Below are positions 138 to 16,119 of a stretch of 18,163 nt of DNA, one piece after another. The notes under the pieces were generated by a model that saw only the letters and a list, made by a program, of their open reading frames with translations, had not been told where the DNA came from and ran no database searches. Source of the stretch: an uncultured Bacilli bacterium (GTDB lineage: Bacteria > Bacillota_I > Bacilli_A > RF39 > UBA660); the NCBI GenBank assembly GCA_944368805.1, contig CALVXC010000026.1:1-18163 (forward strand), written 5' to 3'. Numbering within the stretch: the stretch's first letter is position 1; each line of letters begins with the position of its first letter. The translations under genes and the position numbers were made by a program.

Positions 138-156
138 ATGAATACAGTAAAGACAC
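131..156. repeat. Left attachment site (att) of the IME: 7-bp core CTACTCT (131-137) plus element-internal arm (138-156)
   Basis: Core CTACTCT is identical to 10986-10992. Arm ATGAATACAGTAAAGACAC (138-156) is the imperfect inverted repeat (15/19) of GTGTCTATACTAAATGCAT at 10966-10984. Confidence 0.8.
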
Positions 157-363
157 TTAATTTCTTAATCCCTTATAAAATAAGGGTTTGCGTGTGTTTC
201 ACATTCAAGCATTAAAATTAACTTGAATTTTGAAAATCATTATTTTTTATAGTATTTACAATAGTTTAAGCGTATGTCCTGAAACAACCTTAAATTATTG
301 TCTTTTTTTAGTTTAACTTAATATTTTTAAGAGTTATTTAATTGTCTAGAAGTACTAGACATT

Positions 364-1224: not shown

Positions 1225-1345
1225 TTATTCACCATCCTTTACTATTTATTTTTAATATGTATTAAGCAAAAGGTTATAGAAGTGTATAACCCCTCACTTA
1301 TATTATTCTACAAAAGTTTTGTATTTCCTTTTTTTATTTTGAAAT

Positions 1346-2959
1346 TTATTCAAAATTCCATTTAATTTGAATATCTCTAGTATTCGTTTCCTCATTTAAT
1401 TTACCAATATAGATTTTATCAATAAACTCATCAATAATAACTCTGTTTAAACTTTCAAGAGTTTTATATTTGCTAAATATTTTTTTATTATCATTTGTAG
1501 CAATTTCTTTCTTTTTATAAAATTCAATTTCATTATCAATAGATTTAATTTGGCCATTATAGATAGATTCATTACTATTATAATCACTAACTAATTCTTT
1601 AAATTGTTCTGCAGTAATTATTCCATTAACTTTATCTTCATATAATGACTTTAGATATTTTCTAGTTTCTGATACTTTTTTTATAGTTTCTAGTTTTTGA
1701 TTTTCTAATGATTTAATTTTATCTGAAAATCTACTTTTCTTATTTTTAGTTTCAATTTTAGATAATGATACTTCATCATAATACATTTGAATTTTCTTAT
1801 TTATTGCCTCTAATACAATATTTTCTAAAACATCATATCTAATAGAACTTTTGTTAATACAATCATCATATCCATCTCTATTGTTAGAGCAGACTAGATA
1901 TTCGTGTAATTTAGAATTCTTTTTTCTCATATATCTTTTACATTCTAAACAAAACACTTTACCAGAGAAGTTATGAACAACTCCTGTTGATTTCATAGGC
2001 TTTGTTCTTTCTTTCATAGCGATTTGAACTTTATTAAAAGTTTCACTATCAATAATTGCTTCGTGAGTATTTTCTTTTCGTACCCAATCTTTTTCATTTT
2101 TCTTTTTGATTTTATGATTTTTATAACTAACAGTAGTTCTTTTACCTTGTATTAGATGACCAACATATAATTCATTCGTTAAAATCGTTTTTATGGCGTT
2201 TGTAGACCATTTTATTTGCTCTCTAGGTCTATTGCTTATCACGTTCAGTTTGATGCCTTTTTGATACTTATAAAGTGAAGGAGAAGGTATCTTTTTCTCA
2301 TTTAAATACTTTGCTATACCCGTAAATCCCATACCTTTTAAATATAAGTCAAAAATATCTTTTACTATTTCAGAAGCAATAGGATCTACTACTATTTTGT
2401 TATTATCTTCTTTAGATACTTCATAACCAAATGAGGCGAAAGGAGAAATGAATTCTCCTTGCTTCATTTTTGCTTGGAAAGCACTTCTAATATTATTAGA
2501 AGTATCTTCTAAATACCATTCATTAACAAGTCCATTTATTTGTCTAGATTTTTTATTACCTTCAACATTGGTATCAGCATTATCTGCTAAACCTATAAAT
2601 CTAATATTCCATTCAATAAACTTATTATGAATATATTTTTCAACAACTTCCATATCTCTAGAGAATCTTGATTGACTTTTACATAAAATTACATCAATTT
2701 TTCCATTTTCACAATCTCTAATTAGTCTTTCAAATTCAGGTCTAAAAGTACCAGCACCAGATAAATCTTCATCACAATATTCATCTACTAACATAAATTC
2801 AGGTCTTTTTTCAATTTCTTCTAAAAGTAAATTCCTTTGATTTTTAATTGATTCACTATCATCTAATTTATTTGCTTTGTCTTTGTCTTCATCAGATAAT
2901 CTTAAATAAATAGCAACTCTTAAATATTTCTTTTCCTCAACACTCTCCATTTCATACAT
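1346..2959 (-). CDS. Large serine recombinase (element integrase)
   Basis: The resolvase-type N-terminus VAIYLRLSDED...SIKNQR contains the catalytic Ser. It is followed by a recombinase domain, a Cys-rich zinc ribbon (FCLECKRY...LVCSNN...C) and a coiled-coil C-terminus. The start is set at ATG 2959 (MYEMES...), 7 nt after SD GGAGGT. The tracked TTG at 2974 overlaps the SD. Confidence 0.9.
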   Translation of the reverse strand: MYEMESVEEKKYLRVAIYLRLSDEDKDKANKLDDSESIKNQRNLLLEEIEKRPEFMLVDEYCDEDLSGAGTFRPEFERLIRDCENGKIDVILCKSQSRFSRDMEVVEKYIHNKFIEWNIRFIGLADNADTNVEGNKKSRQINGLVNEWYLEDTSNNIRSAFQAKMKQGEFISPFASFGYEVSKEDNNKIVVDPIASEIVKDIFDLYLKGMGFTGIAKYLNEKKIPSPSLYKYQKGIKLNVISNRPREQIKWSTNAIKTILTNELYVGHLIQGKRTTVSYKNHKIKKKNEKDWVRKENTHEAIIDSETFNKVQIAMKERTKPMKSTGVVHNFSGKVFCLECKRYMRKKNSKLHEYLVCSNNRDGYDDCINKSSIRYDVLENIVLEAINKKIQMYYDEVSLSKIETKNKKSRFSDKIKSLENQKLETIKKVSETRKYLKSLYEDKVNGIITAEQFKELVSDYNSNESIYNGQIKSIDNEIEFYKKKEIATNDNKKIFSKYKTLESLNRVIIDEFIDKIYIGKLNEETNTRDIQIKWNFE

Positions 2960-3382
2960 AACTATTACCTCCAATACTTCGGTAATAATTAAGTTTTAAG
3001 CTAAACTTATAACCAATACCATTATACCATTTAATTGACTTCATTACACGAAAGTTCCATTAATTTTATAATATTAAATAGTTTTTCGTTAATTAGTTGT
3101 TTTAAATCGGTATCAGTTATCTTCTCATCTACAACATCAATAACATTGTATATAGTGTCTATAAAAATGCCTCCTTATAATTTTATTAACTTGAGGAGTA
3201 AACTCGGTAGTCATATTTGAATCTATTTTTAATTGCTTTAATCATAATATCAACCTCCAATCATTACTATATTAATTTTTCTTTATTATTCTTTTTCTAT
3301 ACGATATTTGTTTTTAATCAATTAAATTTATTATTATTTTAAATTATACGGCTACACAAGTTTACTTAAATTTTAAGAGTGT

Positions 3383-4816
3383 CTATCTTCCAATTTCAAA
3401 ATCATCTGATTTGTCTTTATAAGCATAGTTACGATTAATTTTATTTGCATACATTTCCATTTCATCATAATCTATATCATCATTTTTATTATAGTGAATT
3501 CCAATTTTATGACCTAAAGCTCTGCAGAACTTATCACAAAGACTATACATTTTTTCTTTGAATTCTTTTAGATGTTTCATTAATTTTTCAACCTGATTTT
3601 CTAAACTTTCAATAATACTATTTTTTTCTTTAATAATTTGTTTTTGTTTTTCTATTAATTCATCTCGTTCTTTAATACCGCGACCATCTTTTAGTTTTGT
3701 GTTTTCTAAACTTAATGTTTCAATCTTTTTAGTCATAGTTTCAATAGTGTAATCTTTTTCTTTGATATATTTAGTATTTAAGATATTTTGCTTTTTAATT
3801 TGTTTTGAATAATCAATCAAATTATCAACATCTTTTCCTTTATATAGAGATATTTTGTTTTTCTGTGGATTAAGAACTTCATTATCGTCTAAATCTTTTA
3901 TTTGATTAATTGTTTCTAGTTCTATTTGATTTAGTTTTTTATTTCTTTCAAATTCAAGTTTCATTTCTTCAATTTGTTTATTCATATCTTCAATTTCTTT
4001 TTGTGCTTTTGTTTTATGATAAACATTATCTCCGATATTACCTCTGAATAAATTATATCCTTTATCATTAATATACTTATTATAATCATCTTGAATTTTG
4101 GCGTATGATGCTTTACCACCTTTTTCTTTCCAAAACTGATCGCAATTTACAAACTTTCCTTTTTCAATTGTATACATATTTTTACCATTTGCATCTTTCT
4201 TTTGAATAGGTAATAATTTTTTAATACCATCTTTTCCTGTTACTTCATGTTTAATAAGATTTCCTTTTGAATCAGTTTCAAATACTTTTCTTTTAACCTC
4301 ATTAACAACAGGAATAAAATAGAAGTGCATGTGTGGTGTATCTTCATCATAATGAACTTCTGCATATACTATATTTTCTTTACCAACGAAATCTTCTAAA
4401 AAATCATAACTATCTTTGAAAAAAATTTTTACTTTCTCTGGAATATCTTTTTCATCTTTAATATCAGGAATTAAAATATCTTCGTCTTTATTTTTTCCGT
4501 ATTCAATTTTACGACCACTTGGTTTAAAATTCATTCCTAATGTTTGAAAAAATTCTTTTCCACTTGTAACGACAGCGCCATTTAGTAAATTAACATTTTT
4601 ACTATCGTTATAATATATTTTATTTTTATTTATATTAGAATAGACTTGTTCTTTTAAAGTTGACTTTTCTAAAGGAACAAAAGAAAAATTAAATTTAGTT
4701 CGTTCTTTATCATAATTTCCTGTTCCTTTTCTTTCAGTTAATTCAACACCAAGTCCACCTAAATCGCTTGCTTTAAATTTGTTTTCAAATCTTAATACTT
4801 GGTTTCCATCGTGCAT
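3383..4816 (-). CDS. MobV-family (Pre/Mob) relaxase
   Basis: Signature HxDExxPHxH is present as VHYDEDTPHMHFYFIPV. The N-terminal VLRFENKFKASDLGGLGVELTER aligns by eye with pMV158 MobM VARMQKMKAGNLGGAFKHNER. The C-terminal half is a long coiled coil. SD AAGGAGGT lies 5 nt before the ATG. Confidence 0.88.
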   Translation of the reverse strand: MHDGNQVLRFENKFKASDLGGLGVELTERKGTGNYDKERTKFNFSFVPLEKSTLKEQVYSNINKNKIYYNDSKNVNLLNGAVVTSGKEFFQTLGMNFKPSGRKIEYGKNKDEDILIPDIKDEKDIPEKVKIFFKDSYDFLEDFVGKENIVYAEVHYDEDTPHMHFYFIPVVNEVKRKVFETDSKGNLIKHEVTGKDGIKKLLPIQKKDANGKNMYTIEKGKFVNCDQFWKEKGGKASYAKIQDDYNKYINDKGYNLFRGNIGDNVYHKTKAQKEIEDMNKQIEEMKLEFERNKKLNQIELETINQIKDLDDNEVLNPQKNKISLYKGKDVDNLIDYSKQIKKQNILNTKYIKEKDYTIETMTKKIETLSLENTKLKDGRGIKERDELIEKQKQIIKEKNSIIESLENQVEKLMKHLKEFKEKMYSLCDKFCRALGHKIGIHYNKNDDIDYDEMEMYANKINRNYAYKDKSDDFEIGR

Positions 4817-4850
4817 TTATTACCTCCTTTGCATTACTTTTTTTGATGGA

Positions 4851-4915
4851 GGACAATTTATTGTCCTATCTCACTAGGGCATAGCCCACGTGAGTTTAGG
4901 GATATTACCCCTAAA
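4851..4915. other. Candidate oriT: three consecutive GC-containing stem-loops immediately upstream of the relaxase gene
   Basis: GGACAAT/ATTGTCC (4851-4866). Nested CTCAC-ta-GGGC-ata-GCCC-ac-GTGAG (4870-4894). TTTAGGG-atattac-CCCTAAA (4895-4915). These are unusually GC-rich for this DNA and sit where MobV oriTs normally lie. Confidence 0.4.
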
Positions 4916-4983
4916 AACCCCAATACTTGTTTAAGCTAATGCCAATGATAAATCAAAGGCAAAAGCTATAAACAAGATTAAAT

Positions 4984-5040
4984 AATAAGTATCTACTAGA
5001 TACTTATTTAATAAATTATTAAAATCTAGTTTTAATAATT
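4984..5040. repeat. Two adjacent perfect palindromes (12-bp and 11-bp arms) downstream of the RepA-like gene
   Basis: AATAAGTATCTA-c-TAGATACTTATT (4984-5008) and AATTATTAAAA-tctag-TTTTAATAATT (5014-5040). Neither is followed by a T-run on the minus strand, so they are not classic terminators. Confidence 0.6.
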
Positions 5041-5119
5041 GTAAAAATATTCGTTATCGCCACTTCCAACCTTGCAGGTCAGAACGTGCCACACTCATTT
5101 TTTACTTTGATGAAAATAA

Positions 5120-6070
5120 TTAATTTTCAAGGGTAGGTTCTTCATATTTAGCATAATAAATTCTATCAGTACCTGTTCTTTTTAATTCAATATGAAGACC
5201 TTCTTTTTCTAATTTATCTAAATTATTTTTTAATAATTTTCCAAATACTGATGGTACAATTTGTAAATTTAATTTACTAGTTATATCAGATATGGTAAAT
5301 GAAAATTCTTTTTGCTTAATAGCGTAATTTAGAAAAATTAATAAATTAGGATTTAAATCATCAAATTCCATTTCTGATTTTTCAAAAATTAAATTTTCAT
5401 TTCTTTTAAGAACAAAATCTACACTTTCATAATCTCTACTTTCGTAAGTGAATAAAATTTTGCTTTTTAAATTTTGATCTAACTTTAAAGTTATAATTCC
5501 ATCAACAGAACCATCTATTGCAGTTGAACCTAATGATTTATTATTCTTATTTAGATGATGAATTAAAAGAATAGTAAAGTTATATTTTTTACATAACTCT
5601 CTAAATTTAGGGATAACATATTGTCCCATATCTTGATAGTTATTTAAATCATAACCATTATTCATATCAATTCCACTAAACATATCTATAATTACAAATC
5701 TACCATTAAGGTCATTTGCAAACTCTTGAAATTCTAATTGTAAATCCATTAAATTTAATTTTCTTTCGTTTATTTCCTGTTCTTTTAATCTAAAATTATC
5801 ATCATCAAATTCTAGATTCATTTTGTCAATTCTATCTAAAATTTGTGAAAAATTCATTTCTGTGCTAATATATAAGACAGGAGAAGGACTTGTTCTAAAT
5901 CCTAGAAAATTTGTTCCTGTTGCAATTGCATTAGCAAGTTGAAGTGCCAACAATGACTTGCCAACTTTAGGTCTAGCAACAAGACAATATAATCCATTAG
6001 ATTTCATAAGATTATCTACTATGAAATCTTTTTTTGTGGAATTCTTCCTCATTTCACTTATGCATTTCAA
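5120..6070 (-). CDS. RepA/DnaB-like P-loop ATPase (AAA_25-type; putative element replication helicase)
   Basis: Walker A is VARPKVGKSLLALQLA and Walker B is FVIIDMFSG. LLIHHLNK resembles a sensor motif, and there is a C-terminal winged-helix-like tail. The start is TTG at 6070, 6 nt after SD GGAGG. Confidence 0.75.
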   Translation of the reverse strand: MKCISEMRKNSTKKDFIVDNLMKSNGLYCLVARPKVGKSLLALQLANAIATGTNFLGFRTSPSPVLYISTEMNFSQILDRIDKMNLEFDDDNFRLKEQEINERKLNLMDLQLEFQEFANDLNGRFVIIDMFSGIDMNNGYDLNNYQDMGQYVIPKFRELCKKYNFTILLIHHLNKNNKSLGSTAIDGSVDGIITLKLDQNLKSKILFTYESRDYESVDFVLKRNENLIFEKSEMEFDDLNPNLLIFLNYAIKQKEFSFTISDITSKLNLQIVPSVFGKLLKNNLDKLEKEGLHIELKRTGTDRIYYAKYEEPTLEN

Positions 6071-6093
6071 ATTTACACCTCCTTTCCAACATT

Positions 6094-6117
6094 AAAAAAA
6101 CTTGTATTATCTACAAG
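6094..6117 (-). terminator. Weak terminator/attenuator-like hairpin between the small wHTH-like gene and the RepA-like gene
   Basis: On the minus strand, CTTGTA-gataa-TACAAG is followed by T7 (6100-6094). The stem is only 6 bp and AT-rich. Confidence 0.3.
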
Positions 6118-6278
6118 TACACGAGAAAAAAAGCAGAATTATCCTGGGAACATTATTTTAAATCTTGTTCCTCAAGATTGTTATTGATTCAGCCTAATGG
6201 CTAGGTACTAAATAAATCTACGAACATTTACTGTACCTTATTTACTAACGATTATTACTTTTACATATAACATCTTTT

Positions 6279-6539
6279 TTAGTAAATGTGATATTCATAT
6301 AACCCTTTATCATATTCTTTATATATTAGATATTTAAATTGTTCTAATATTTTAAGATTATTTTTGAAGCCTACATTTGTTATATGAATCTTATTTTGGA
6401 TATCTCCAATGTTGATATGGGCTATATATTTATCAAAAGCATTTGAGTGAAGAATTGCATATATCTCTTTTGCCTCTGGCTTGATATTTTTATCTCTCCA
6501 TATCTTGTGTTTAGATAGGTCTAGCTTTTTACTAGGCAT
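6279..6539 (-). CDS. Small (86 aa) putative winged-helix DNA-binding protein, first gene of the minus-strand mobility operon
   Basis: The start is reassigned to ATG 6539 (MPSKKLDL...), 8 nt after a strong SD AGGAGGTG. The pattern ...EAKEIYAILHS...IGDIQNKIHITNVGFKNNLKILEQFKYLIYKE...YEY resembles wHTH proteins. The family is not identified. Confidence 0.5.
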   Translation of the reverse strand: MPSKKLDLSKHKIWRDKNIKPEAKEIYAILHSNAFDKYIAHINIGDIQNKIHITNVGFKNNLKILEQFKYLIYKEYDKGLYEYHIY

Positions 6540-6562
6540 ATATTTTATCACCTCCTGACTTT

Positions 6563-6578
6563 TGGAAATTAGTTTCCA
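6563..6578. promoter_or_regulatory. Operator-like palindrome TGGAAATTAGTTTCCA; half-site TAGTTTCCA repeated at 6616-6624
   Basis: This is a 16-bp near-perfect palindrome (7 of 8 pairs) located at about +1 to +16 of the predicted minus-strand promoter. A 9-bp direct copy of the right half lies immediately upstream of the -35 box. Confidence 0.5.
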
Positions 6579-6585
6579 TAAATAT

Positions 6586-6614
6586 AATCTATCATATAAA
6601 AACAACTTTGTCAA
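6586..6614 (-). promoter_or_regulatory. Predicted sigma-A-type promoter for the minus-strand operon (wHTH, RepA-like, Mob...)
   Basis: On the minus strand, -35 is TTGACA (6614-6609), followed by a 17-nt spacer and -10 TAGATT (6591-6586). Confidence 0.45.
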
Positions 6615-6632
6615 CTAGTTTCCAAAAAATAC

Positions 6633-6661
6633 TTTATTTTTTTAAAAAAGTGTGTTATACT
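6633..6661 (+). promoter_or_regulatory. Predicted promoter of the XRE regulator gene
   Basis: Extended -10 TGtTATACT spans 6653-6661. The -35 TTTATT (6633-6638) is weak, with a 17-nt spacer. Confidence 0.35.
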
Positions 6662-6679
6662 TAATATGTCGTTGGGAGA

Positions 6680-7207
6680 ATGGATATGTTTAAGAAGAAA
6701 AATAATGAATTAGAAATAAACAATGATATTGCTATGTTAGTTAAAGAAGCAAGACTAAAAAAAGGTCTTTCAGCACGTAAATTAGCAGAATTATGTGATA
6801 TTAGTCATACTGAAATAAATAATATAGAACGAGGTATAAGAGTTAAACCTGCTATATTAACATTAAAAGGATTTGAAAAGTATTTGGATTTACCATTTGA
6901 ACAAACTGCTAAATTAGTTGGTTATTCTGATGTAACAATAGAATATGGGGAAGAAAATATTATTGTATCCTATGAAAAATACGATAAAATGCGTGAACAA
7001 TATAAAACTGAATTTGAACATATGCAACATTTTATAGAACAAAAAAGACATCTAGGAATGGATATAGAAGAATATTTTTCAGTTATACATAAATATTTAA
7101 AAGAACAAGAAAACATAAATGAAGATATTTTAAATAAAGCTGAAGCAATAGAAAAGTTTTTAAAAGAATTACAAAGAAAATATGAATTTATCACAAAAGA
7201 AAAATAA
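6680..7207 (+). CDS. XRE/Cro-CI family HTH transcriptional regulator with a coiled-coil C-terminal extension
   Basis: IAMLVKEARLKKGLSARKLAELCDISHTEINNIERG is a canonical HTH_XRE. The gene is divergent from the minus-strand operon. The second ATG (6686) is better spaced from SD GGGAGA and may be the true start. Confidence 0.85.
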   Translation: MDMFKKKNNELEINNDIAMLVKEARLKKGLSARKLAELCDISHTEINNIERGIRVKPAILTLKGFEKYLDLPFEQTAKLVGYSDVTIEYGEENIIVSYEKYDKMREQYKTEFEHMQHFIEQKRHLGMDIEEYFSVIHKYLKEQENINEDILNKAEAIEKFLKELQRKYEFITKEK

Positions 7208-7286
7208 TGACACGAGTGACAGAAAAAATTATGAGGTACCCACCCAAAATGTGCTGTCATGCTGTCATTTGACATAATAAGAATAG

Positions 7287-7313
7287 TATGAATTTAATTC
7301 ATATTATTTTTTT
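7287..7313 (+). terminator. Putative rho-independent terminator after the XRE gene
   Basis: Palindrome TATGAATTtAATTCATA (7287-7303) is followed by TTATTTTTTT (7304-7313). The stem is AT-rich, so predicted stability is modest. Confidence 0.4.
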
Positions 7314-7354
7314 GCTAATTTTATAATAGTTTTCTTTAAAAATAAGGACAAAAG

Positions 7355-7383
7355 TTGTAAAATTTTCAATTTTATGTTATCAT
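7355..7383 (+). promoter_or_regulatory. Predicted dedicated promoter of the AAA+/vWA cargo operon
   Basis: The -35 is TTGTAA (7355-7360), followed by a 17-nt spacer ending in TGt (extended -10) and -10 TATCAT (7378-7383). SD AAGGGGG follows, 7 nt before ATG 7409. Confidence 0.5.
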
Positions 7384-7408
7384 AACTGAACGTTAAGGGG
7401 GAAACTTT

Positions 7409-9250
7409 ATGAAAATAAATAAAATAGGAATTTTAAAAGAACAGCAAATGGAAGAATCTTCAATGATTGAAACATTAAAAAGTATAGGATTAGGTTGTTA
7501 TTGTTCAGATCTAGGACGTATATCTGGTGTTGATTTTGAACCAACAACTGGTAATGGTGATTATTGGTATGATGGATTACCAAATAATGATAAAAGAAAA
7601 GTTAGAACAACAAAACACATTACTAAAAATAATAGTATGTCATTTGCATATTCTGAAAAAGAAAAGATTGGTGTCAGAATAGCTGTTTCTTTTGATGATA
7701 TAGAAGATTTTGATATCGATAAAATAGATGATTTAGTTTGTGAATATCCATTACATGCAATAACTGGTATGGGTGGAAATACTATAAATAAATTGTTTGA
7801 AACAAAAAGCAAACTATTAATAAAAACAGGTAGAGTTCATAATATAAATGATGTTGAATATGAAGAATATGAAGTTTTTGGAATAAGATTTATTAAATTT
7901 CAAAATAAAGTTGATAAATGTGTATTAAGTGATGGTACAATAGCAGAATTAGATAAAGATATTTATCTTAAAGTTGATAAAATACCATTTATTGTTGATA
8001 AAGAAGCAAGAATGATATATTCATCTGCTATTTTGATGGCAGCACCATTTGATAGTAAAGAAAGAAATTATGACCATAGTGACTTAAGAAGATATTTAAA
8101 TAATGGTTTTATTAAAAGTATTAATGATGAATTAGAACATAAAAGTCCTTCTGTAGTATTTAAAGATGAAACTGTTGAAAACAATAGATATAAATTTAAT
8201 TTTAATCCACTAACTGAAGAAGAAATAATTGAAATTTGTATAAATTGTAACATAGCAGTATTCTTACATGGTAAAACTGGTACTGGTAAAACAGAAAGAA
8301 TGATTGCTTTAGATAGAAACTTAGAATTAGTGGATTTTGGATGTACTAGTTCAGATGGATTTACAGGTATTATTGCTAAAGATTTTAATTCTAAAGAATT
8401 ATTTATATATGAACCATATTGGTATAAAAATCTTTGCAAAAAGTGTGAAGAAGAACCTGAATTATTACATATATTATTTCTTGAAGAATTAACAAATGCC
8501 AAAAATGATATTCAAAAAGTTGCATTCGAGGTAACACTTAACAAAACATTAACTAATAGTGGTTTTAGATTGAAATTACCTGAAAATGCAGTTGTTTGCG
8601 CTGCTGGTAACGAAGCTAATGAATCAAGATCTGCAAATGCTATGAGTGAGCCATTATTTGGAAGATTTGCTCATGTTTATATTGATACAGATTCAGATGA
8701 GTGGCTAAAATGGGCTATGAGAAGAAAAAAACAAGGAAAAGTTTTAAAATACAAAAAATATGAAGAAAAAGAAACTATACATCCTGCAATAATAGATTAT
8801 ATTAAAGTAAAAGGTAATGAAGTTTTAAGAACTCAATATAATGGAACAACACCTAATGCAGACCCAAGAAAATGGGCTATGGCTTCAAAAGCATTATATC
8901 AAAGTAATAATCCAAATGTTTTACGTGCATTTGTAGGCACTGAACTTGCTGAAGATTTTATAAAATTCTGCAAAATCAATTTAATAACTGTTGATGATGT
9001 ATTAAACGATAAAGTATCTCCTAATGAAGTGCCAGTAGATAGTTCAATAAGATGGTTCACTATATTATGTTTAAGTAATGTAGCTGATGAAAATGTTGAT
9101 AAAGTTAGAGAATTTGTCGGTAATTTGGGTAAAGAATATTTAGCAACATTTGATTATGAATGGTCAAAAGATAACGATGAAAGAATAATGAAACTATATA
9201 ATACACAACCGACTTATGTAAAAAGGTTAACGTTAAATGGAAATAAATAA
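7409..9250 (+). CDS. AAA+ ATPase of the MoxR/AAA_5 (dynein-related) type with a ~270-aa N-terminal domain of unknown function
   Basis: Walker A is FLHGKTGTGKT (nt 8270-8293 encode GKTGTGKT). Walker B and its following segment, ILFLEELTNAKNDIQKVAFEV, align by eye with MoxR LLADEINRAPPKTQSALLEAM. VVCAAGNE is sensor-1-like and LFGRFAHVYID resembles the MoxR LDRF motif. No catalytic motif is recognised in residues 1-270. Confidence 0.8.
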   Translation: MKINKIGILKEQQMEESSMIETLKSIGLGCYCSDLGRISGVDFEPTTGNGDYWYDGLPNNDKRKVRTTKHITKNNSMSFAYSEKEKIGVRIAVSFDDIEDFDIDKIDDLVCEYPLHAITGMGGNTINKLFETKSKLLIKTGRVHNINDVEYEEYEVFGIRFIKFQNKVDKCVLSDGTIAELDKDIYLKVDKIPFIVDKEARMIYSSAILMAAPFDSKERNYDHSDLRRYLNNGFIKSINDELEHKSPSVVFKDETVENNRYKFNFNPLTEEEIIEICINCNIAVFLHGKTGTGKTERMIALDRNLELVDFGCTSSDGFTGIIAKDFNSKELFIYEPYWYKNLCKKCEEEPELLHILFLEELTNAKNDIQKVAFEVTLNKTLTNSGFRLKLPENAVVCAAGNEANESRSANAMSEPLFGRFAHVYIDTDSDEWLKWAMRRKKQGKVLKYKKYEEKETIHPAIIDYIKVKGNEVLRTQYNGTTPNADPRKWAMASKALYQSNNPNVLRAFVGTELAEDFIKFCKINLITVDDVLNDKVSPNEVPVDSSIRWFTILCLSNVADENVDKVREFVGNLGKEYLATFDYEWSKDNDERIMKLYNTQPTYVKRLTLNGNK

Positions 9251-10487
9251 TATTATTAAGAAAGTTCTTTTTCGATACCCAATATTTGGTAATGTGATAG
9301 CAAATTTAAAATTTCAATTTACTACAGAACCAGTACCAGCTCCTGCTTTTACTGATGGAGGAACTATTTATTATAAACAAGATTTTTTTACTGATTTTAA
9401 TGATGATGAAAAAGAATTTGTTATTTCACACGAGATATTCCACATTGTATTAAATCATTTGTTTAGAAATCTTGGTAAAGATAGAGATTTGTTAAATTAT
9501 GTGGAAGATGCTATTATTAATCAATTATTAATTAGAGATGGATTAGTAATGCCTGAAGGACTTGTATATGTAGAAGACGCTCTTGATTATTCAGTAGATG
9601 AATTATATTTAAAATTTTTACCTAAATTAGATGAAATAAAAGAATGGATGGGTTCCAATACCTATCATATAGAATTAACCGATGAAGAAATAAATGAACT
9701 AAATGATAAATTAAATGAGATTTTAAATAATTCTTATAGTAGTTATAGTAGAGATTTACAAGAATTAATGAATGATAATCAACAACTTAGAGAAGAATTG
9801 ATTGATGATTTTCAAGAAAAATTAAAACAAGAAGCAGAATCTACAGGGTATGGAAAATATGCCGGTAGACAAGAATTTCCAAGTGTAGCAGTTGGAAAAG
9901 CAGCACCATTACTTTATTGGCAAGAATTGCTTAAACAAACTTTAGTGGTTCCAGATGAAGTAACAACATCATTTTATGAAGTTGAAATGGATGGAATTAT
10001 AAGAAAAGAAGAAAAAGCAGATGTAGGTTATTCTGAAAGTGAAATAATCATTGATAGTAGTGGTTCTATGAATATGCAAAAAATTAAAGCTATTTTAAGA
10101 GAATGTAAAAACATTTTATCTTCAAGTAGTATTAGAGTAGGTTTTTGTGATACTGAATTTTATGGTTGGAATGAAATTAGAAATGAAAGTGATATTGATA
10201 ACTTGCGAATAATTGGTCGTGGAGGAACTAATTTTGATAATATGGCTAATAGTTTTTCTATAGATGCCGATAATAAAATTGTTATTACAGATGGGGAATG
10301 TACTTTTCCAAAAGATAGACCAGATATACTATGGGTAATAATAAATTACCGTAAACCATATTTTTATTCAGATAATGCGGAAAATAATTCTAATAAAATT
10401 AATTCTATATTTATAAATGAAAGAGATATACCTATACCAACCAATAGTAAAAGATTGACATTAAAAAAAATACCTAGTAAGCATTAA
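9237..10487 (+). CDS. Putative zincin metallopeptidase (HExxH) fused to a vWA domain with a complete MIDAS motif (DUF2201_N + VWA-like DUF2201 architecture)
   Basis: VISHEIFHIVLNH carries HExxH (nt 9429-9443). An acidic coiled-coil linker covers about aa 140-200. MIDAS residues are IIIDSSGSM (DxSxS, nt 10053-10067), GRGGTNF (Thr) and VITDGE (Asp). The start overlaps the ATPase stop by 14 nt (ATGGAAATAAATAA). Confidence 0.8.
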   Translation: MEINNIIKKVLFRYPIFGNVIANLKFQFTTEPVPAPAFTDGGTIYYKQDFFTDFNDDEKEFVISHEIFHIVLNHLFRNLGKDRDLLNYVEDAIINQLLIRDGLVMPEGLVYVEDALDYSVDELYLKFLPKLDEIKEWMGSNTYHIELTDEEINELNDKLNEILNNSYSSYSRDLQELMNDNQQLREELIDDFQEKLKQEAESTGYGKYAGRQEFPSVAVGKAAPLLYWQELLKQTLVVPDEVTTSFYEVEMDGIIRKEEKADVGYSESEIIIDSSGSMNMQKIKAILRECKNILSSSSIRVGFCDTEFYGWNEIRNESDIDNLRIIGRGGTNFDNMANSFSIDADNKIVITDGECTFPKDRPDILWVIINYRKPYFYSDNAENNSNKINSIFINERDIPIPTNSKRLTLKKIPSKH

Positions 10488-10505
10488 TGCCTACTAGGTA
10501 TTTTT
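10463..10505. terminator. Bidirectional rho-independent terminator between the convergent vWA gene and the 132-aa ORF
   Basis: A-run (10463-10470), then stem ATACCTAGTAAGCAT (10470-10484) pairing with ATGCCTACTAGGTAT (10487-10501) with one mismatch, then T-run 10501-10505. Confidence 0.7.
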
Positions 10506-10904
10506 CTATTCATTATTAATTAAAGAATAACAATAATCATATACTAATAAATGGTTATTAATTTCTTCATTAATAATTTTATCTTTAAAATCATTTTCAT
10601 ATATATTAAATATCATTTCAATAGAGAAATGCTTTTTTTCTTTTTCAGTAAGTTCTAAATACTTGGCTGAAAAGAATAATAAATGTTTATATTTACTAAA
10701 ATTAGTTATTACTTTAGTATAATTCGGATCTAATGCACTTAAAACTTGTTTTAATAAAATAATCATATCTCTTACATTAAAATCTACACTAAAATTTTTA
10801 TTTTCTAATAAATATATTGCTAATCTTACTTTGTCAATATCACTTAAATTATCAAATTGATGTATTAAATCAATTACTTTTTTTGTATTACTTTCTAATA
10901 ACAT
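10506..10904 (-). CDS. Hypothetical protein (132 aa), predicted helical, no recognisable domain; last gene inside the IME
   Basis: The ORF is clean, with SD GAGGT 6 nt before the ATG, and it ends at the bidirectional terminator. It is co-oriented with, and immediately downstream of, the truncated host ABC operon. Confidence 0.55.
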   Translation of the reverse strand: MLLESNTKKVIDLIHQFDNLSDIDKVRLAIYLLENKNFSVDFNVRDMIILLKQVLSALDPNYTKVITNFSKYKHLLFFSAKYLELTEKEKKHFSIEMIFNIYENDFKDKIINEEINNHLLVYDYCYSLINNE

Positions 10905-10965
10905 AGTTTTACCTCATTTCCTTTATTTACAATGGTTATAAGTAGCTTTTACTTAATTATTACTC

Positions 10966-10992
10966 GTGTCTATACTAAATGCATACTACTCT
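10966..10992. repeat. Right attachment site (att) of the IME: element-internal arm (10966-10984) plus 7-bp core CTACTCT (10986-10992)
   Basis: The core is identical to 131-137. The arm is the inverted partner (15/19) of 138-156. The host reading frame diverges exactly here (QRV then VCI-stop instead of ALIRTL). Confidence 0.8.
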
Positions 10993-11400
10993 CTGTCTCA
11001 TACCTCCAGATAGGTTATTTGGATAACTTTCGATAAAATCTTTTAAGCCATATGTTTCTAATAAATTAACGACGTTTTGTTTGTTTTCTTCCGTAAGATT
11101 GTTATTTAATTCTAAACCTAGTAAACAATTATCAATTATATTACGCCAATTAAATAAACTATCGTATTGCAACATATAACCAATTTTAGTTCCTTCTTTA
11201 AATTTAAAAGAACCATCTGATTTATTTTCTAACCCACATAAAATTGATAAAATAGTCGATTTGCCACAACCACTTGGGCCCACGATAGCAACGAATTCAC
11301 CATCGTGTAAACTAAAAGAAAAATTATCGACAGCTAAGGTTTCACCATGCTTATTGTGATAAATTTTCTTTAAATTCTTAATTCTTAAAATTTCATTCAT
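10975..11400 (-). pseudogene. 5' part of the ABC-transporter ATPase gene (NitT/TauT SsuB-like), truncated by IME insertion after the signature motif
   Basis: MNEILRIKNLKKIYH..., Walker A GPSGCGKST, Q-loop MLQ and signature LSGGMRQRV are followed by 3 element-encoded codons and a stop. ATG 11400 overlaps the upstream SBP stop (ATGAATGA). Confidence 0.9.
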
Positions 11401-12382
11401 TTTTAGAATATGTATTATCAACTATTTTGTCATATGGTGCTTTTTTGTCTAATTCACCAGCATTTTCCATAATGGTTTGAATATGATTGAAATCTTCTTC
11501 ATTTATATAAGTTGTATCATACCAAGAATCAATATCTTTATAACGGTCGATAATTGTTACTAAATCATTCATCGATGTATCAGGGAAATAATCGATAATT
11601 GTTTCAGCAATTGTTTCAGAATCATTGTTATGAACAAAATCTAAACCTTTTTGGATGGCTTTAGTAAAACCTTCGATTACATCAGGGTTTTCCTCGATAT
11701 AACTTTTTTTAGCATGGTAAGCAGTATAAGGCACTGTTCCACCTAGTTCACCTACAGAAGCGACAACATGACCATATCCTTGTTGCTCTAATTGTAAAGC
11801 TTGTGGTTCAAATAATGATACAAAATCACCATAACCACCAATAAAAGTTCCTGACATAGCAGAAAAGGCTATACTAGTATCAAAATTTACATCATCTGTT
11901 TTTAAGCTGTTTTGATTTAAAGCCCACTCTAGTGTCATAGCAGGCATACCACCTTGACGACCAGCAATAATGTGTTTACCTTTTAAATCTTCAACCTCAA
12001 AATCTTTTATTTCTTCTCTAGCTACAAGAAAACTACCATCTTTTTTAGTTAAACCAGCAAAAGTAACTAAATAATCTTCCTCGCCTTGATTATAAACATA
12101 GACAGTTACTTCACTACCAGAAAAACCAATATTAACATCACCAGATAATACAGCAGATGATACTTTATCTGCTCCAGCAGTTAGAATTATTTCAACATCT
12201 AAGCCTTCGTCTTCAAAATATCCTAAAGCGTGGGCTGCATATTGTGGAGCATAAAAGATGCTATGAGCAACTTCGGCAACAGTAATCTTTTTAAGATCAT
12301 TATCTTTATTTTTCAAGATAATTCCTAATACTACTAAAATAGCTATAATTAAGATAAAAAATCCAACAATAAATTTTTTCAA
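11393..12382 (-). CDS. ABC-transporter substrate-binding protein, NMT1/THI5-SsuA/TauA-like (nitrate/sulfonate/bicarbonate family)
   Basis: An N-terminal TM/signal anchor is followed by ITVAEVAHSIFYAPQYAAHALGYFEDEGLDVEI...GDVNIGFSG, typical of the NMT1/SsuA fold. The start is TTG, after SD AAGGAGGAG. Confidence 0.8.
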   Translation of the reverse strand: MKKFIVGFFILIIAILVVLGIILKNKDNDLKKITVAEVAHSIFYAPQYAAHALGYFEDEGLDVEIILTAGADKVSSAVLSGDVNIGFSGSEVTVYVYNQGEEDYLVTFAGLTKKDGSFLVAREEIKDFEVEDLKGKHIIAGRQGGMPAMTLEWALNQNSLKTDDVNFDTSIAFSAMSGTFIGGYGDFVSLFEPQALQLEQQGYGHVVASVGELGGTVPYTAYHAKKSYIEENPDVIEGFTKAIQKGLDFVHNNDSETIAETIIDYFPDTSMNDLVTIIDRYKDIDSWYDTTYINEEDFNHIQTIMENAGELDKKAPYDKIVDNTYSKNE

Positions 12383-12455
12383 AAATATATCTCCTCCTTT
12401 TTTCTAATTTATTATATTCAACTTAAAAAAAGGGGTGAGACTATTAAAGATTAAA

Positions 12456-12484
12456 TTTACATCTTAGCTTATAAGTGATATAAT
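12456..12484 (+). promoter_or_regulatory. Strong predicted sigma-A promoter upstream of the HipS-like ORF
   Basis: The -35 is TTTACA (12456-12461), with a 17-nt spacer and an extended -10 TGaTATAAT (12476-12484). Confidence 0.6.
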
Positions 12485-12510
12485 ATTAAATAATTGTTAG
12501 GAGGGTTAAT

Positions 12511-12819
12511 GTGGAAAAATATAATATTATTTGGAATAGACATGATGAAGAAAAAGAATATGTCATTGGAACGTTAATTCATGCTGAATTTTGGAGTTTT
12601 TTTTACAATAGAAAAGTATTTGACGAAGCATTTGATAAAGGTTTTAGACCTTTTCCAGAATTTCCTGATAAAGATAAGTACTATGTTAAAGAAGCATGCT
12701 TTAAAACTTTTGAAAGTCGATTAAACAATGATATAGTAACTGACAATATAAAATGTGAATTAGAAACAGGTGGTTACAGTGAAGCGAAAGGACATAGTCA
12801 ATATTCCAAAAATAGGTAA
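12511..12819 (+). CDS. HipA N-terminal subdomain-like protein (HipS-like, 102 aa)
   Basis: GTG start lies 5 nt after SD AGGAGGG. YVIGTLIHAEFWSFFYNRKVF...FPEFP...CFKTFESRLNN follows the HipA N-subdomain pattern (vGeL...F.Y...W...P.S..LP...FF.NLLP). Confidence 0.6.
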   Translation: MEKYNIIWNRHDEEKEYVIGTLIHAEFWSFFYNRKVFDEAFDKGFRPFPEFPDKDKYYVKEACFKTFESRLNNDIVTDNIKCELETGGYSEAKGHSQYSKNR

Positions 12820-13600
12820 AGAGCCAAGAGGAACAAATAATAAATATTGGATCAAAGATAAAGGAATTAATAAATTAGTTAAATATAATAGTGATATTTA
12901 TCCTGATTTAGATGTTATGGAAAGTTTAGCTTCAGATATTTTAAAGAAAATTAAAATAGATTGTGTTAATGTTGAACTTGGTTATAATTCTGATATTAAG
13001 CAAAATTGTTGTATAATTGATAGTTTTTTATTAAAAGATTGTGAAGTTTTATATGAAATAGATATTGATTGGCCAGAAAGAGAGATTAAAGATATAAATA
13101 GAGAAATTGAAATGAGTTTTGGTAGAGTATTTGGAATTTTTTATAAATTGTGTTCTGAAGAGGAATTAAAGCAATTAATAAAACAATATATACGTAAAAC
13201 TCTAGGAGATATTATTATTGGTAATGAAGACGGTAAATTAAAAAACACAGGTCTTATTTTTAATGAAGAAACTCACAGATATCGTTTAACTCCCAATTTT
13301 GATAATGGTTTGGCATTTCATAGTTATATATTTGGCCAATCTAATGAACCAATTTGTTATATTGGAAATCAAGGTTTTACTTCAAATGAAGTTTTAACTT
13401 ATATTTTAAATAATAAGTATGATGATGTTTCTGATATTATTGATAGTTTTAACGATTTTATGGAAAATGATTATATACAATTGATCGATACATATCAGCC
13501 TGTTTTAGAACCCCAAAAATATCATTATATTATAAAACATCTTGATTGGATTAAGTATAATATAGATACACTTTTACCTAAAAATCATAAAGCTAGGTGA
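12770..13600 (+). CDS. HipA-family serine/threonine kinase core (HipT-like); start uncertain (GTG 12770 or GTG 12779)
   Basis: IIIGNEDGKLKNTGLIFNEETHRYRLTPNFDNGLAF aligns by eye with E. coli HipA WLIGATDGHAKNFSVFIQAGGSYRLTPFYDIISAF. The catalytic Asp, the Asn and the Mg-binding Asp are kept. PRGTNNKYWIK occupies the position of the Gly-rich AGAQEK loop. The ORF overlaps the preceding ORF in the +1 frame. Confidence 0.75.
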   Translation: MVTVKRKDIVNIPKIGKEPRGTNNKYWIKDKGINKLVKYNSDIYPDLDVMESLASDILKKIKIDCVNVELGYNSDIKQNCCIIDSFLLKDCEVLYEIDIDWPEREIKDINREIEMSFGRVFGIFYKLCSEEELKQLIKQYIRKTLGDIIIGNEDGKLKNTGLIFNEETHRYRLTPNFDNGLAFHSYIFGQSNEPICYIGNQGFTSNEVLTYILNNKYDDVSDIIDSFNDFMENDYIQLIDTYQPVLEPQKYHYIIKHLDWIKYNIDTLLPKNHKAR

Positions 13601-13605
13601 TTTAA

Positions 13606-14265
13606 ATGAAAATATTAATTATTGAAGACGATATTAAATTAAGAGAAGAACTTAAAAAATCTTTAAAGAATAATGGTTATGAAGTTGAATTAATAACACA
13701 ATTCAATAATCTAGTTAATGATGTTGTTAAATTTAAAGTTGATTTAATATTACTAGATTTAAATTTACCTAATGTTGATGGTAAATTTATATGCAAAAAA
13801 ATTAGACAAATTAGTAATACTCCGATAATTATTTTAACAAGTAGTAATTCAGAGATTGATGAGATTATTAGTTTAAATTATGGTGCGGATGATTATATTA
13901 CTAAACCATATAATTTACAAATATTGCTTTTACATATTGAAGCTGTTTTGAAAAGATTTAATCCAAAATCATTAATAATTCCTTATAAAAATATTAAACT
14001 AGATGTTTCTAAAAGTATTATTGAAACAAATGATAAAAATATTGATCTTAGTAAAAACGAAAGTAAAATATTATTTTATTTATTAAAAAATAAAGGTAAA
14101 ATCGTATCTAGAGAAGAAATAATGTCATATTTATGGGATAGTGAAATGTTTGTTGATGATAATACTTTAACTGTTAATATCAATCGTTTACGTAATAAAC
14201 TATCAATGATTGGTTTAGATAAAGTAATTGAAACTAAACGAGGATTAGGATATATAATCAAATGA
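13606..14265 (+). CDS. OmpR-family response regulator, BceR-like
   Basis: The receiver domain contains DLILLDLNLPNVDG (phospho-acceptor Asp). The C-terminal winged helix is LTVNINRLRNKL...ETKRGLGYII. It sits in a Bce-type gene neighbourhood. Confidence 0.9.
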   Translation: MKILIIEDDIKLREELKKSLKNNGYEVELITQFNNLVNDVVKFKVDLILLDLNLPNVDGKFICKKIRQISNTPIIILTSSNSEIDEIISLNYGADDYITKPYNLQILLLHIEAVLKRFNPKSLIIPYKNIKLDVSKSIIETNDKNIDLSKNESKILFYLLKNKGKIVSREEIMSYLWDSEMFVDDNTLTVNINRLRNKLSMIGLDKVIETKRGLGYIIK

Positions 14266-15281
14266 AATTTAATAAGTATTTAAAAGACAAAATCTTTGAA
14301 ATAGTTTTATATGTTATTTTAATAATGATTATTTTAATAATGCTTTATTCTTTTTCAGTTAATTCTTTCTTATTTTTCTATATTACAATTTTACTAATTA
14401 CTTTTGGCTTAATTATGTTATTATATAATTTTTTTAGAAGAAAAAAATTTTATGATAATTTAATTCAAACACTAAATAAAATAGATCAAAAATATCTATT
14501 ACAAGAAATGATTAATAGACCTAATTTTATTGAAGGCAAGATATTATATGATACTTTATATGAAACTAATAAAGCGATGTTAGATGTTATTAAAAAATAT
14601 AAATTAAAAGAAAAAGATTTTAAAGAATATATTGAGCTATGGCTTCATGAAATAAAAACACCATTAGCGACATCTAATTTAATAATTCAAAATAATCATA
14701 ACGCTATTGACGAAAGTGTTTTAGAACAATTAAATAGAATTGATAATTTAGTTGAACAAGTAATGTTTTATGTTAAAAGTGGTAATGCTAATAAAGATTA
14801 TTTAATTAAAAAACATAAACTTGATACAATTATTAAAAAAATAGTTAAACGTAATAAAAAGAGCTTTATTTTAAAACAAATAACTTTAGAATTAAAAGAT
14901 TTAAATGTTTTAGTTAATACTGATAGTAAATGGTTAGAATTTATTATTAATCAAATTATTAATAATAGTATTAAATATAGTAAAGAGAAAAATAGTTTTA
15001 TTAAAATTTATACTAAAAAAGAAAAGAATAGAATTATTTTATATATTGAAGATAATGGGATTGGTATTGATAAGAAAGATATTGATCGTGTTTTTGATAA
15101 AGGTTTTACTGGTTCAAATGGACGTTTAAAATATAACTCGACAGGAATTGGACTATATTTATGTCATGAACTATGTCAAAAATTAGGATATGATATTGCT
15201 ATTAGTTCTATTTTAAATAAAGGAACAATTGTAAAAATAATTTTTCCACTTAATTCGTTAGTTATTGAAAACCTTACATAA
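14262..15281 (+). CDS. Intramembrane-sensing histidine kinase, BceS-like
   Basis: Two N-terminal TM helices are joined by a few-residue loop, so there is no extracellular sensor domain. H-box WLHEIKTPLA, N-box IINNSIKYS, G1 EDNGIGI and G2 GIGLYL are present. The start overlaps the response-regulator stop by 4 nt (ATGA). Confidence 0.9.
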   Translation: MKFNKYLKDKIFEIVLYVILIMIILIMLYSFSVNSFLFFYITILLITFGLIMLLYNFFRRKKFYDNLIQTLNKIDQKYLLQEMINRPNFIEGKILYDTLYETNKAMLDVIKKYKLKEKDFKEYIELWLHEIKTPLATSNLIIQNNHNAIDESVLEQLNRIDNLVEQVMFYVKSGNANKDYLIKKHKLDTIIKKIVKRNKKSFILKQITLELKDLNVLVNTDSKWLEFIINQIINNSIKYSKEKNSFIKIYTKKEKNRIILYIEDNGIGIDKKDIDRVFDKGFTGSNGRLKYNSTGIGLYLCHELCQKLGYDIAISSILNKGTIVKIIFPLNSLVIENLT

Positions 15282-15293
15282 TTGTAAGGTTTT
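15268..15293 (+). terminator. Stem-loop after the histidine kinase gene (11-bp perfect stem), a possible terminator and/or response-regulator box
   Basis: AAAACCTTACA (15268-15278), loop taat, TGTAAGGTTTT (15283-15293). The loop contains the stop codon and the T-run is part of the stem. Confidence 0.55.
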
Positions 15294-15354
15294 GTAATAT
15301 AAATCGATTGTTATATAATACTATTTTGTTTATAATTAGTGTGAGGTGAAGATT

Positions 15355-16119
15355 ATGAAAGTTTTACAACTTAAAAATGTTGAAAAGTATTATGGTAGTC
15401 GATCAAGTTTAACTAAAGCAATTGATGATATCAGTTTTGAAGTTTCAGATGGTGAATTTGTTGGAATTATGGGCGCGAGTGGAAGTGGAAAAACAACTTT
15501 GTTAAATTGTATTTCAACTATTGATAGGGTAACTAGTGGTCACATTATAATTAATGATCAAGATATTACTAAATTAAAAAACAATCAGTTAAATCGCTTT
15601 CGACGTGAAGAATTAGGTTTTATTTTTCAAGATTTTAATTTATTAGATACCTTAACTGCATATGAAAATATAGCTTTAGCTTTAACGATTCAAAAAGTAA
15701 ATCATTTAGAAATTGATAGCCGTGTTAAGAAAATAGCTAAAAAGTTAAATATTACAAATATTTTAAAAAAATATCCTTATCAAATGTCTGGTGGGGAGAA
15801 ACAAAGAGTTGCTTCAGCGCGAGCTATTATAACTAATCCTAAATTAGTTTTAGCTGATGAACCAACTGGTGCTTTAGATTCTAAATCAGCTAGAATGTTA
15901 CTAGAAAATTTTGAGTATTTAAATCAAGAATTAAAAGCAACTATTTTAATGGTAACTCACGATGCTTTTACAGCTAGTTATTGTAAGCGTATTTTATTTA
16001 TTAAAGACGGTAAAATATTTAATGAATTAATTAGAGGCGATGATACACGTAAAGAATTTTTTAATCGAATTATTGAAGTTGTTACCCTTTTGGGTGGTGA
16101 ATTAAATGATGTTGTTTAA
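15355..16119 (+). CDS. ABC-transporter ATP-binding protein, BceA-like (MacB/FtsE-type)
   Basis: Walker A GASGSGKTT, signature MSGGEKQRV, Walker B LVLADEPTGALD and H-loop VTHD are present. The start is set at ATG 15355, 5 nt after SD GAGGTGA. The tracked GTG at 15346 lies inside the SD. Confidence 0.9.
   Translation: MKVLQLKNVEKYYGSRSSLTKAIDDISFEVSDGEFVGIMGASGSGKTTLLNCISTIDRVTSGHIIINDQDITKLKNNQLNRFRREELGFIFQDFNLLDTLTAYENIALALTIQKVNHLEIDSRVKKIAKKLNITNILKKYPYQMSGGEKQRVASARAIITNPKLVLADEPTGALDSKSARMLLENFEYLNQELKATILMVTHDAFTASYCKRILFIKDGKIFNELIRGDDTRKEFFNRIIEVVTLLGGELNDVV

Follow-up and report, generated by a model that had tools for sequence, protein, structure and literature searches.

Two overlapping genes on an 18,163-bp stretch of DNA from an uncultured Bacilli bacterium (contig CALVXC010000026.1 of GenBank assembly GCA_944368805.1, positions 1 to 18,163; hereafter the window) encode an AAA+ ATPase and a protein that combines a zincin peptidase domain with a von Willebrand factor A (vWA) domain. 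The pair is carried as cargo by an integrative mobilizable element of about 10.9 kb and is a self-contained, tightly linked two-gene unit. It is quite possibly, though we hold this view with reserve, a target-recognising, ATP-driven proteolytic conflict module to which the host, the element and other invaders would be the parties. The ATPase's N-terminal domain is targeted by diversity-generating retroelements (DGRs) in relatives and evolves fast, the third components of the system look interchangeable, and the module is repeatedly carried by islands; together these properties suggest that the module recognises variable targets and hence takes part in genetic conflict.

Organization of the gene pair

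The features of the pair and its immediate surroundings are, in window coordinates:

7281-7316, plus strand: AT-rich hairpin followed by a T-run, terminator-like, between the upstream helix-turn-helix (HTH) gene and the pair
7355-7383, plus strand: promoter-like site, TTGTAA, 17-nt spacer, TATCAT, with an upstream TG
7409-9250, plus strand: ATPase gene, 613 aa
7409-8218, plus strand: N-terminal domain of the ATPase (aa 1-270), DUF6273-related, probably C-type-lectin-like, putative target-binding module
7580-7687, plus strand: counterpart in alignments of the DGR variable region of relatives (aa ~58-93), ending in an invariant G-V-R90
8270-8293, plus strand: Walker A motif GKTGTGKT (aa 288-295)
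8471-8488, plus strand: Walker B motif ILFLEE (aa 355-360)
9237-10487, plus strand: zincin-vWA gene, 416 aa
9429-9443, plus strand: HEIFH motif, H65-E66-x-x-H69
10053-10067, plus strand: metal ion-dependent adhesion site (MIDAS) motif D273-S-S275-G-S277, completed by T331 and D352
10466-10505, both strands: long palindromic hairpin between an A-run and a T-run, bidirectional-terminator-like

A preliminary description of this DNA, made from the sequence alone, had reported two open reading frames (ORFs) overlapping by 14 nt, the second with a weak Shine-Dalgarno sequence, and the coordinates bear this out. The ATPase gene is preceded by a strong Shine-Dalgarno sequence (AAGGGGGA, 7395-7402), and the zincin-vWA gene by AAAGG only, 10 nt 5' of its ATG. 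The 14-nt overlap is retained in the close clade (loci L010-L020, in which the ATPase match ends at 10011 and the vWA gene starts at 10001). The promoter-like site is well positioned before the ATPase gene and agrees at 9 of 12 positions, plus the TG; the earlier epithet "near-consensus" is nevertheless too strong because such sites are no commoner in this AT-rich DNA (ca. 25% G+C) than in shuffled sequence (36 found in the window against 44 expected). Both hairpins bracketing the pair, described before as terminators, are real and were confirmed by folding. The upstream one (~7281-7309) is the weaker, with an AT-only stem of 13 bp, a folding energy of -9.8 kcal/mol and z = -4.5. The downstream hairpin, which covers the last codons and the stop codon of the zincin-vWA gene, reaches -19.5 and -26 kcal/mol on the two strands (z = -6.8 and -8.8).

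The ATPase core and the zincin-vWA partner

Conservation of the domain set and motifs of both proteins was assessed over 53-60 homologues. The ATPase passes the Pfam AAA_5 (dynein/midasin/CbbQ/McrB-type AAA+) cut-off only marginally, with 22.5 bits where 22 are required; residues 284-420 align with profile positions 2-139 of 139. Its match to PHROG 1297, labelled "ATPase", is strong (E=4e-45; residues 269-596). In the alignment of 60 homologues from which its motif conservation was read, G288, G293 and K294 of Walker A, E360 of Walker B, the sensor-1 asparagine N401, R419 and R487 are all invariant. The AlphaFold2 model is confident (mean predicted local distance difference test score, pLDDT, of 87), and its Foldseek neighbours are MCM-type AAA+ proteins and short phage AAA_5 ATPases, including the "Gp24-like" protein of phage RaK2 and ORF618 of Acidianus two-tailed virus (ATV). 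The AAA+ assignment of the preliminary description, with its Walker and sensor motifs, therefore stands, and its MoxR label has to be loosened: neither Pfam AAA_3 nor any NCBIfam MoxR model matches the protein, which by these profiles is best described as AAA_5-like, "MoxR-like" in the broad sense only.

The partner protein matches DUF2201_N (E=3e-18, 67.0 bits; cut-off 23.2) and then DUF2201 (E=8e-8, 32.8 bits; cut-off 26.4), in that order, so that the three Pfam families named beforehand for the pair, AAA_5 included, all score above cut-off. It also matches PHROG 1314 (E=1e-44), whose label, "HNH endonuclease", is a misnomer. The protein consists of a zincin domain (aa ~1-140), a helical linker (aa ~141-235) and a vWA domain (aa ~240-395). 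Within the HEIFH motif H69 is invariant, and at least 90% of sequences keep H65 and E66; H74 is invariant or nearly so. The MIDAS residues D273, S275, S277 and D352 are invariant, and T331 is invariant in alignment A1 and conserved in at least 90% of sequences in A3. The intact HExxH and complete MIDAS (DxSxS...T...D) noted previously are confirmed. The AlphaFold2 model of this protein is moderate (mean pLDDT 74), with low confidence in the linker, which is also poorly conserved. Using Foldseek, the C-terminal domain resembles integrin I-domains, and the zincin domain weakly resembles the mini-zincin selecase (rank 46).

A fast-evolving N-terminal domain diversified in relatives

The window ATPase scores 17.9 bits against DUF6273, below the cut-off of 23.5, its first 270 residues matching no other family, and 8 of 25 family members match this profile, up to E=5e-7. 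DUF6273 is C-type-lectin-like, and DGR variable regions lie at its C-terminal end (PMC10743442, PMC11792537); following this literature, a C-type-lectin-like fold is the putative assignment for the N-domain of the window protein. A search of PDB sequences with the N-domain profile gave no meaningful match, and an N-domain search of a large protein database, in which a word filter restricted the output to 5 proteins, brought up no new architecture. When the domain was aligned with that of the DGR-targeted clade using hhalign, a probability of 99.9% (E=2e-31) was obtained over 274 columns, that is, its whole length, and on this alignment its homology to the domain that DGRs diversify in relatives can be regarded as secure. 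In the clade to which the window pair belongs, the columns of the N-domain have identities of 0.25-0.54 and those of the AAA+ core 0.66-0.85, and the least conserved block of the ATPase, aa 61-80 (identity 0.25), coincides with the position of the DGR variable region. Near-identical copies of the gene have ~55-80% of their substitutions within the N-terminal 44% of the protein. By these measures the N-domain evolves much faster than the core.

The relatives were surveyed by a scan of one genome per species, which gave 79 loci. A complete DGR lies directly upstream of the ATPase gene in four of them (L042, L066, L067 and L070), each cassette comprising a bAvd-like gene, a template repeat and an RVT_1 reverse transcriptase; at L061 a reverse transcriptase is found at the contig edge. 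These loci belong to the sister clade of the window pair, and their copies of the pair look chromosomal. The variable repeat falls inside the ATPase N-domain, at approximately residues 71-98. Mismatches between variable and template repeats are concentrated at template adenines in L042 (9 of 11) and L067 (9 of 12), and less exclusively so in L066 (11 of 18) and L070 (6 of 10). Diversification of the N-domain in these sister genomes suggests the recognition of variable targets, and the "sensor/remodeller" role proposed earlier gains real support from an N-terminal extension that is probably lectin-like and is DGR-diversified in relatives. Repeat pairs were located at:

L042: 6329-6412 and 7897-7980
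L067: 6298-6380 and 7875-7957
L066: 6287-6369 and 7867-7949

Read in the frame of the variable region, the template repeats of these three loci hold stop codons (TAG, TAA, TGA). Exact copying would therefore shorten the ATPase, and the frame would stay open only after mutation of the adenines in question. In two assemblies (L042 and L067) a stop is present in the variable repeat; the same positions in L066 read TTA and TGG. The template stop codons could be a built-in on/off or forced-diversification feature.

Modular composition of the system

In 34 bacterial loci (L028-L085; e.g. L042, 9590-9991) a protein of ~133 aa is encoded between the ATPase and vWA genes. It is conserved and looks like a degenerate AAA+ fragment, extending from Walker B to sensor-1 and having no P-loop. 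In phage XC38 (L093, 4508-4915) a gene for ~135 aa occupies the same position, the likeness being one of size and place. This middle gene is absent from the window, where a search with its hidden Markov model gave only a weak match inside the ATPase itself; fusion of the middle protein into the window ATPase was rejected, the match being confined to the Walker-B/sensor-1 region.

Six loci (L034, L040, L048, L050, L052 and L080) encode a short ATPase that has no N-domain, and all six carry a ~650-aa WG-repeat-like protein immediately downstream of the vWA gene (e.g. L040, 11329-13290, with a WG-repeat match, E=4.5e-5, that is below threshold). None of the 79 loci has both the N-domain and the repeat protein; six have the repeat protein only, 59 the N-domain only and 14 neither (Fisher p=1.4e-4, not corrected for phylogeny). 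This mutual exclusion suggests that the two are interchangeable specificity components.

The mobilizable element and its insertion site

The element and the remaining features of the window are:

140-10990: integrative mobilizable element, ~10.9 kb, ends approximate, within a few bases
364-1224, minus strand: Bro-N gene
6680-7207, plus strand: XRE-family HTH regulator
10506-10904, minus strand: orphan gene orf132 at the element's right end, convergent with the pair
68-146 and 10975-11421: remnants of an ATP-binding cassette (ABC) gene on either side of the element
12511-18163: host flank

To the left of the pair, on the minus strand, are the genes for the Bro-N protein, a large serine recombinase, a MobV relaxase and an AAA_25 RepA-like ATPase (Pfam assignments), and the gene complement is completed by a small ORF, the XRE regulator, the pair and orf132. 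The regulator gene (HTH_3, E=3e-11; CapH-like in PADLOC, E=9e-8) lies directly 5' of the pair on the same strand and is divergent from the replication, mobilization and recombinase genes. No family in the Pfam, PADLOC, PHROG or NCBIfam libraries matches orf132. The element is classed as mobilizable on its recombinase and relaxase, the lack of a conjugation apparatus and its defined insertion junctions.

Near-identical copies of the element occur in other metagenome contigs beside different genes. Matching to them stops at ~10990, the right end; the left end is at ~140. The insertion splits an ABC-transporter ATPase gene inside its LSGG signature motif: LSGGMRQR ends at the right junction, the reading frame resumes as RVALIRTLATKPDILLLDEP at the left junction, and a core, CTACTCT, is common to both. 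The placement of the pair on a mobile element in the preliminary description is confirmed by these copies and by the split gene.

The near-identical copies adjoin different truncated ABC genes of 137-148 aa, whose neighbours also differ, being either an NMT1-type binding protein or DUF308; the loci compared at this site are L001, L002, L003, L007 and L048. Since the copies lie in different ABC genes, the recombinase seems to target the conserved ABC motif. The left ABC remnant (68-139) stops right after Walker B and is common to L001, in which a second serine recombinase gene abuts it; tandem insertions are possible. The Bro-N gene matches the PADLOC candidate defence family PDC-S13 nearly end to end (E=3e-109) and recurs in the related islands L014, L015 and L048. 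The host flank holds two overlapping ORFs (12511-13600), then a response regulator, a histidine kinase, an ABC ATPase and a large FtsX-type permease, a set that looks Bce-type and peptide-sensing.

Related serine-recombinase islands (L048, L052 and L080) occupy the same ABC-gene site and carry other versions of the module. The L048 recombinase is 74% identical to that of the window and is likewise inserted in a truncated ABC-ATPase gene; this island contains little beyond the recombinase, the alternative module and the Bro-N gene, and no MobV, AAA_25 or XRE gene was found in it. In L052 and L080 the window's orf132 is present at the right end despite the different module version. L080 also retains the adjoining ABC and NMT1 genes, and the L052 contig ends inside orf132. 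Because other versions of the module occur in islands both with mobilization genes and lacking them, it is payload rather than transfer machinery, and it is the recurring payload of this family of islands, with an interchangeable putative specificity component.

Distribution and genomic context

In metagenomes, Erysipelotrichales and other Bacilli commonly encode full-length homologues of both proteins. Searching 1.84 billion representatives with the zincin-vWA profile gave 20,855 clusters at 50% identity, of which 12,233 reached E≤1e-10. The linkage survey that had been proposed earlier gave a clear answer: in essentially every one of the 79 species-level loci with flanking sequence the ATPase homologue adjoins the vWA gene, with the order varying. 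At L088 the pair lies on another small MobV/serine-recombinase element, directly downstream of MobV and on the same strand; at L090 it is in an island ending in a serine recombinase; and at L091 it is a lone pair among housekeeping genes, near the ribosomal protein operon. No partner gene is shared among the 137 immediate neighbours examined in 26 loci. A core metabolic operon of the cobaltochelatase or NorQD type was rejected as the setting, no such neighbours occurring in the loci examined, and in this respect the pair stands outside metabolic operons as had been supposed. A homologous pair of MoxR-family ATPase and VWA-like genes with a 4-nt overlap is present on the CRISPR-rich Synechocystis plasmid pSYSA (L094, record 26352-28630), where it sits among toxin-antitoxin pairs (DUF433/PIN-like, HepT, DUF1778/GNAT) and a DUF262 gene. 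The pSYSA pair is one of three groups of more distant relatives (22-27% identity); the others are the jumbo-phage pair described below and the gp24-like and gp25-like genes of N4-like phages (22-27% by tblastn), which in phage XC38 adjoin a DNA helicase gene.

Comparison with known systems

Searches of PADLOC, NCBIfam, PDB sequences and the literature returned no characterised system that matches the pair, in keeping with the preliminary description; nothing meaningful was found in PDB sequences with either protein, and no functional study turned up in the literature under DUF2201 or the Pfam accessions. The type of pair is nonetheless already known, from its Pfam and PHROG families, as N4 core genes and from a note on jumbo phages.

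The products of gp24 and gp25 of N4-like phages (PHROG 1297 and 1314; E=4e-45 and 1e-44) likewise comprise an AAA_5-type ATPase followed by a zincin and vWA protein. The N4-like ATPases are short (~340 aa) and have no lectin-like N-domain, and a ~135-aa gene lies between the two genes, whereas the window pair has none. These are core middle genes of lytic phages, in contrast to the window pair, which is element cargo. They are two of the 14 core genes of N4-like phages, with middle-phase transcription and no known function (PMC4193335). The MoxR AAA+/metallopeptidase-vWA pair of jumbo phages has the same vWA-subunit architecture and the same gene pairing; processing and maturation of virion proteins was proposed for it by Iyer et al. 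(2021) without experiments (PMC7824862). Unlike the jumbo phages, the window element has no virion genes, and its ATPase possesses an extra binding domain.

The vWA-MoxR ternary conflict systems (Kaur et al. 2020; DGR forms in Dore et al. 2024) resemble the pair in their AAA+/vWA core, their peptidase effectors and a variable lectin sensor that is DGR-diversified in some loci. They differ in having three components, including a VMAP, iSTAND, FtsH or beta-propeller protein, in carrying the lectin domain on the vWA or target protein and in occurring mainly in multicellular bacteria. No third operon component was found in the window in searches that did not include VMAP-specific profiles: only two genes lie between the hairpins, and orf132 is convergent and unmatched. 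The DGR targets of the Candidate Phyla Radiation and DPANN (Wu et al. 2018; Paul et al. 2017, via Dore et al.) have, as described there, a lectin domain on an AAA_5/Midasin-like ATPase; they come from other lineages, and the available descriptions, on which alone the comparison is made, mention no DUF2201 zincin-vWA partner. On these accounts, lectin domains diversified by DGRs are already on record, both for MoxR-vWA systems and for AAA/Midasin ATPases. Three features of the present system were not found in the searched literature: a DUF6273 lectin-like domain fused N-terminally to the ATPase of this binary zincin-vWA system, DGR targeting of the ATPase N-domain in gut Bacillota, and the alternation of the N-domain with a repeat protein.

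RavA-ViaA, CbbQ-CbbO, NorQ-NorD, CoxD-CoxE and the ATV p618/p892 pair also unite an AAA+ motor with a MIDAS-bearing vWA adaptor, and ATV ORF618 is, as mentioned above, a structural neighbour of the window ATPase. They differ in having no peptidase and no lectin-like domain, and in the presence of client genes adjacent to them in a dedicated operon; NCBIfam and PDB sequence searches gave no sequence-level match between these pairs and the window proteins. RavA-ViaA, CbbQO, NorQD and CoxDE are MoxR-vWA maturation factors.

Proposed function and alternatives

As a target-recognising conflict module the pair would operate as follows. The ATPase would form an AAA+ ring, as is usual in its family, and its N-terminal C-type-lectin-like domains would bind a specific ligand, presumably a protein. 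The partner may dock by way of the MIDAS in its vWA domain, contacting either the ATPase or the bound ligand, in line with other MoxR/AAA_5-vWA pairs. ATP hydrolysis would then remodel the complex, upon which the fused HExxH zincin could cut the target so captured or else some substrate in the cell. The conflict could run in either direction, as a defence of the host and the element or as counter-defence on entry. Presence in lytic phages favours a counter-defence or maturation role; the chromosomal DGR-linked copies and the pSYSA context favour defence. More broadly, the pair and its relatives could be widespread intracellular "programmable" recognition-proteolysis machines, in which a lectin-like receptor on an AAA+ motor would capture a foreign protein and pass it to, or activate, the zincin of the vWA partner; in some lineages a DGR would rewrite the receptor, resulting in an antibody-like, protease-based immunity or counter-immunity. 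We regard this wider proposal as possible but on the improbable side.

Several observations weigh against a conflict module of this kind. The glutamate and histidine of HExxH are missing in some family members (P0238). The Foldseek results for the full-length ATPase are dominated by AAA+ (MCM) matches and include no lectin-fold match; that search returned AAA+ only and therefore did not classify the N-domain. There is no DGR in the window, and one acting within it was rejected, as neither a reverse transcriptase nor a template repeat of the N-domain coding region is present. PADLOC-DB 2.0 has no match for the ATPase, and only a weak LeoC match (E=5e-4), in the helical linker, for the zincin-vWA protein. 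The 137 immediate neighbours are mostly housekeeping genes with few defence matches. Finally, the distant homologues in N4-like phages are core middle genes of strictly lytic viruses, with others in jumbo phages, so that a dedicated anti-phage role, one of those offered by the preliminary description, fits poorly. Nor was the anticipated enrichment in mobile elements and defence islands supported: a recombinase or relaxase lies within 10 kb in only 7 of the 79 loci, a count from single-sequence searches of low sensitivity that may be low, and enrichment in defence islands is not evident among the immediate neighbours of the pair.

An unlikely alternative is that the pair is a chaperone or maturation machine, which assembles or proteolytically processes a complex of the element or host and has no part in conflict. 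The virion-assembly interpretation of the same architecture in jumbo phages (PMC7824862) is in its favour, as are the place of the core pair in N4-like phages, beside a helicase gene, and the many chromosomal copies among housekeeping genes. The ATV MoxR/vWA pair, which includes the structural neighbour ORF618, is stated to have been shown to act in this way. The characterised MoxR-vWA pairs, too, serve in maturation. However, neither the element nor the related islands have genes for a virion or another large assembly, a fixed client is hard to square with a binding domain that evolves fast and is DGR-diversified, and the location of the pair differs between species with no conserved client gene nearby.

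We are equally doubtful that the pair is specifically a counter-defence or establishment factor, expressed after entry, which recognises and degrades proteins of the host, whether of its defences or others; this reading is the conflict module with its direction specified. It would explain the occurrence of the pair in lytic phages as well as in mobilizable elements, and indeed the pair is found in lytic N4-like and jumbo phages and in at least three kinds of serine-recombinase element, at L088 immediately behind MobV. On conjugative elements, zincin peptidases such as ArdC serve in anti-restriction (cited in PMC7824862). On the other hand, most genome copies have no mobile-element gene within 10 kb, the DGR-linked copies look chromosomal, and the pair in the window follows a regulator gene rather than transfer genes. 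An induction switch after the pattern of ImmA/ImmR or CapP/CapH, in which the ATPase would sense a signal and the zincin cut the neighbouring XRE repressor, derepressing the divergent replication, mobilization and recombinase genes, is highly improbable: the CapH-like XRE gene immediately 5' on the same strand, and an HTH gene near the pair in L088, speak for it, but DUF2201_N differs from the ImmA/IrrE/CapP peptidase family, most family loci, phage and chromosomal ones included, have no adjacent repressor, and L048 has the module with no XRE gene found.

Significance

The zincin-vWA family spans lytic phages, plasmids, mobilizable elements and chromosomes. The ATPase's DGR-diversifiable lectin-like domain is here linked to a vWA partner that bears a protease, and this link yields the testable hypothesis of capture, ATP-driven remodelling and cleavage, for which a two-gene construct from the window would be compact (3.2 kb). 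If the pair does recognise variable proteins, the idea of hypermutated "antigen sensors", drawn from STAND and ternary MoxR systems in multicellular bacteria, would also cover a simple binary system of gut Bacillota and of the mobile elements that they carry. The pair might also explain the conserved and enigmatic gp24 and gp25 genes of the N4-like phages.

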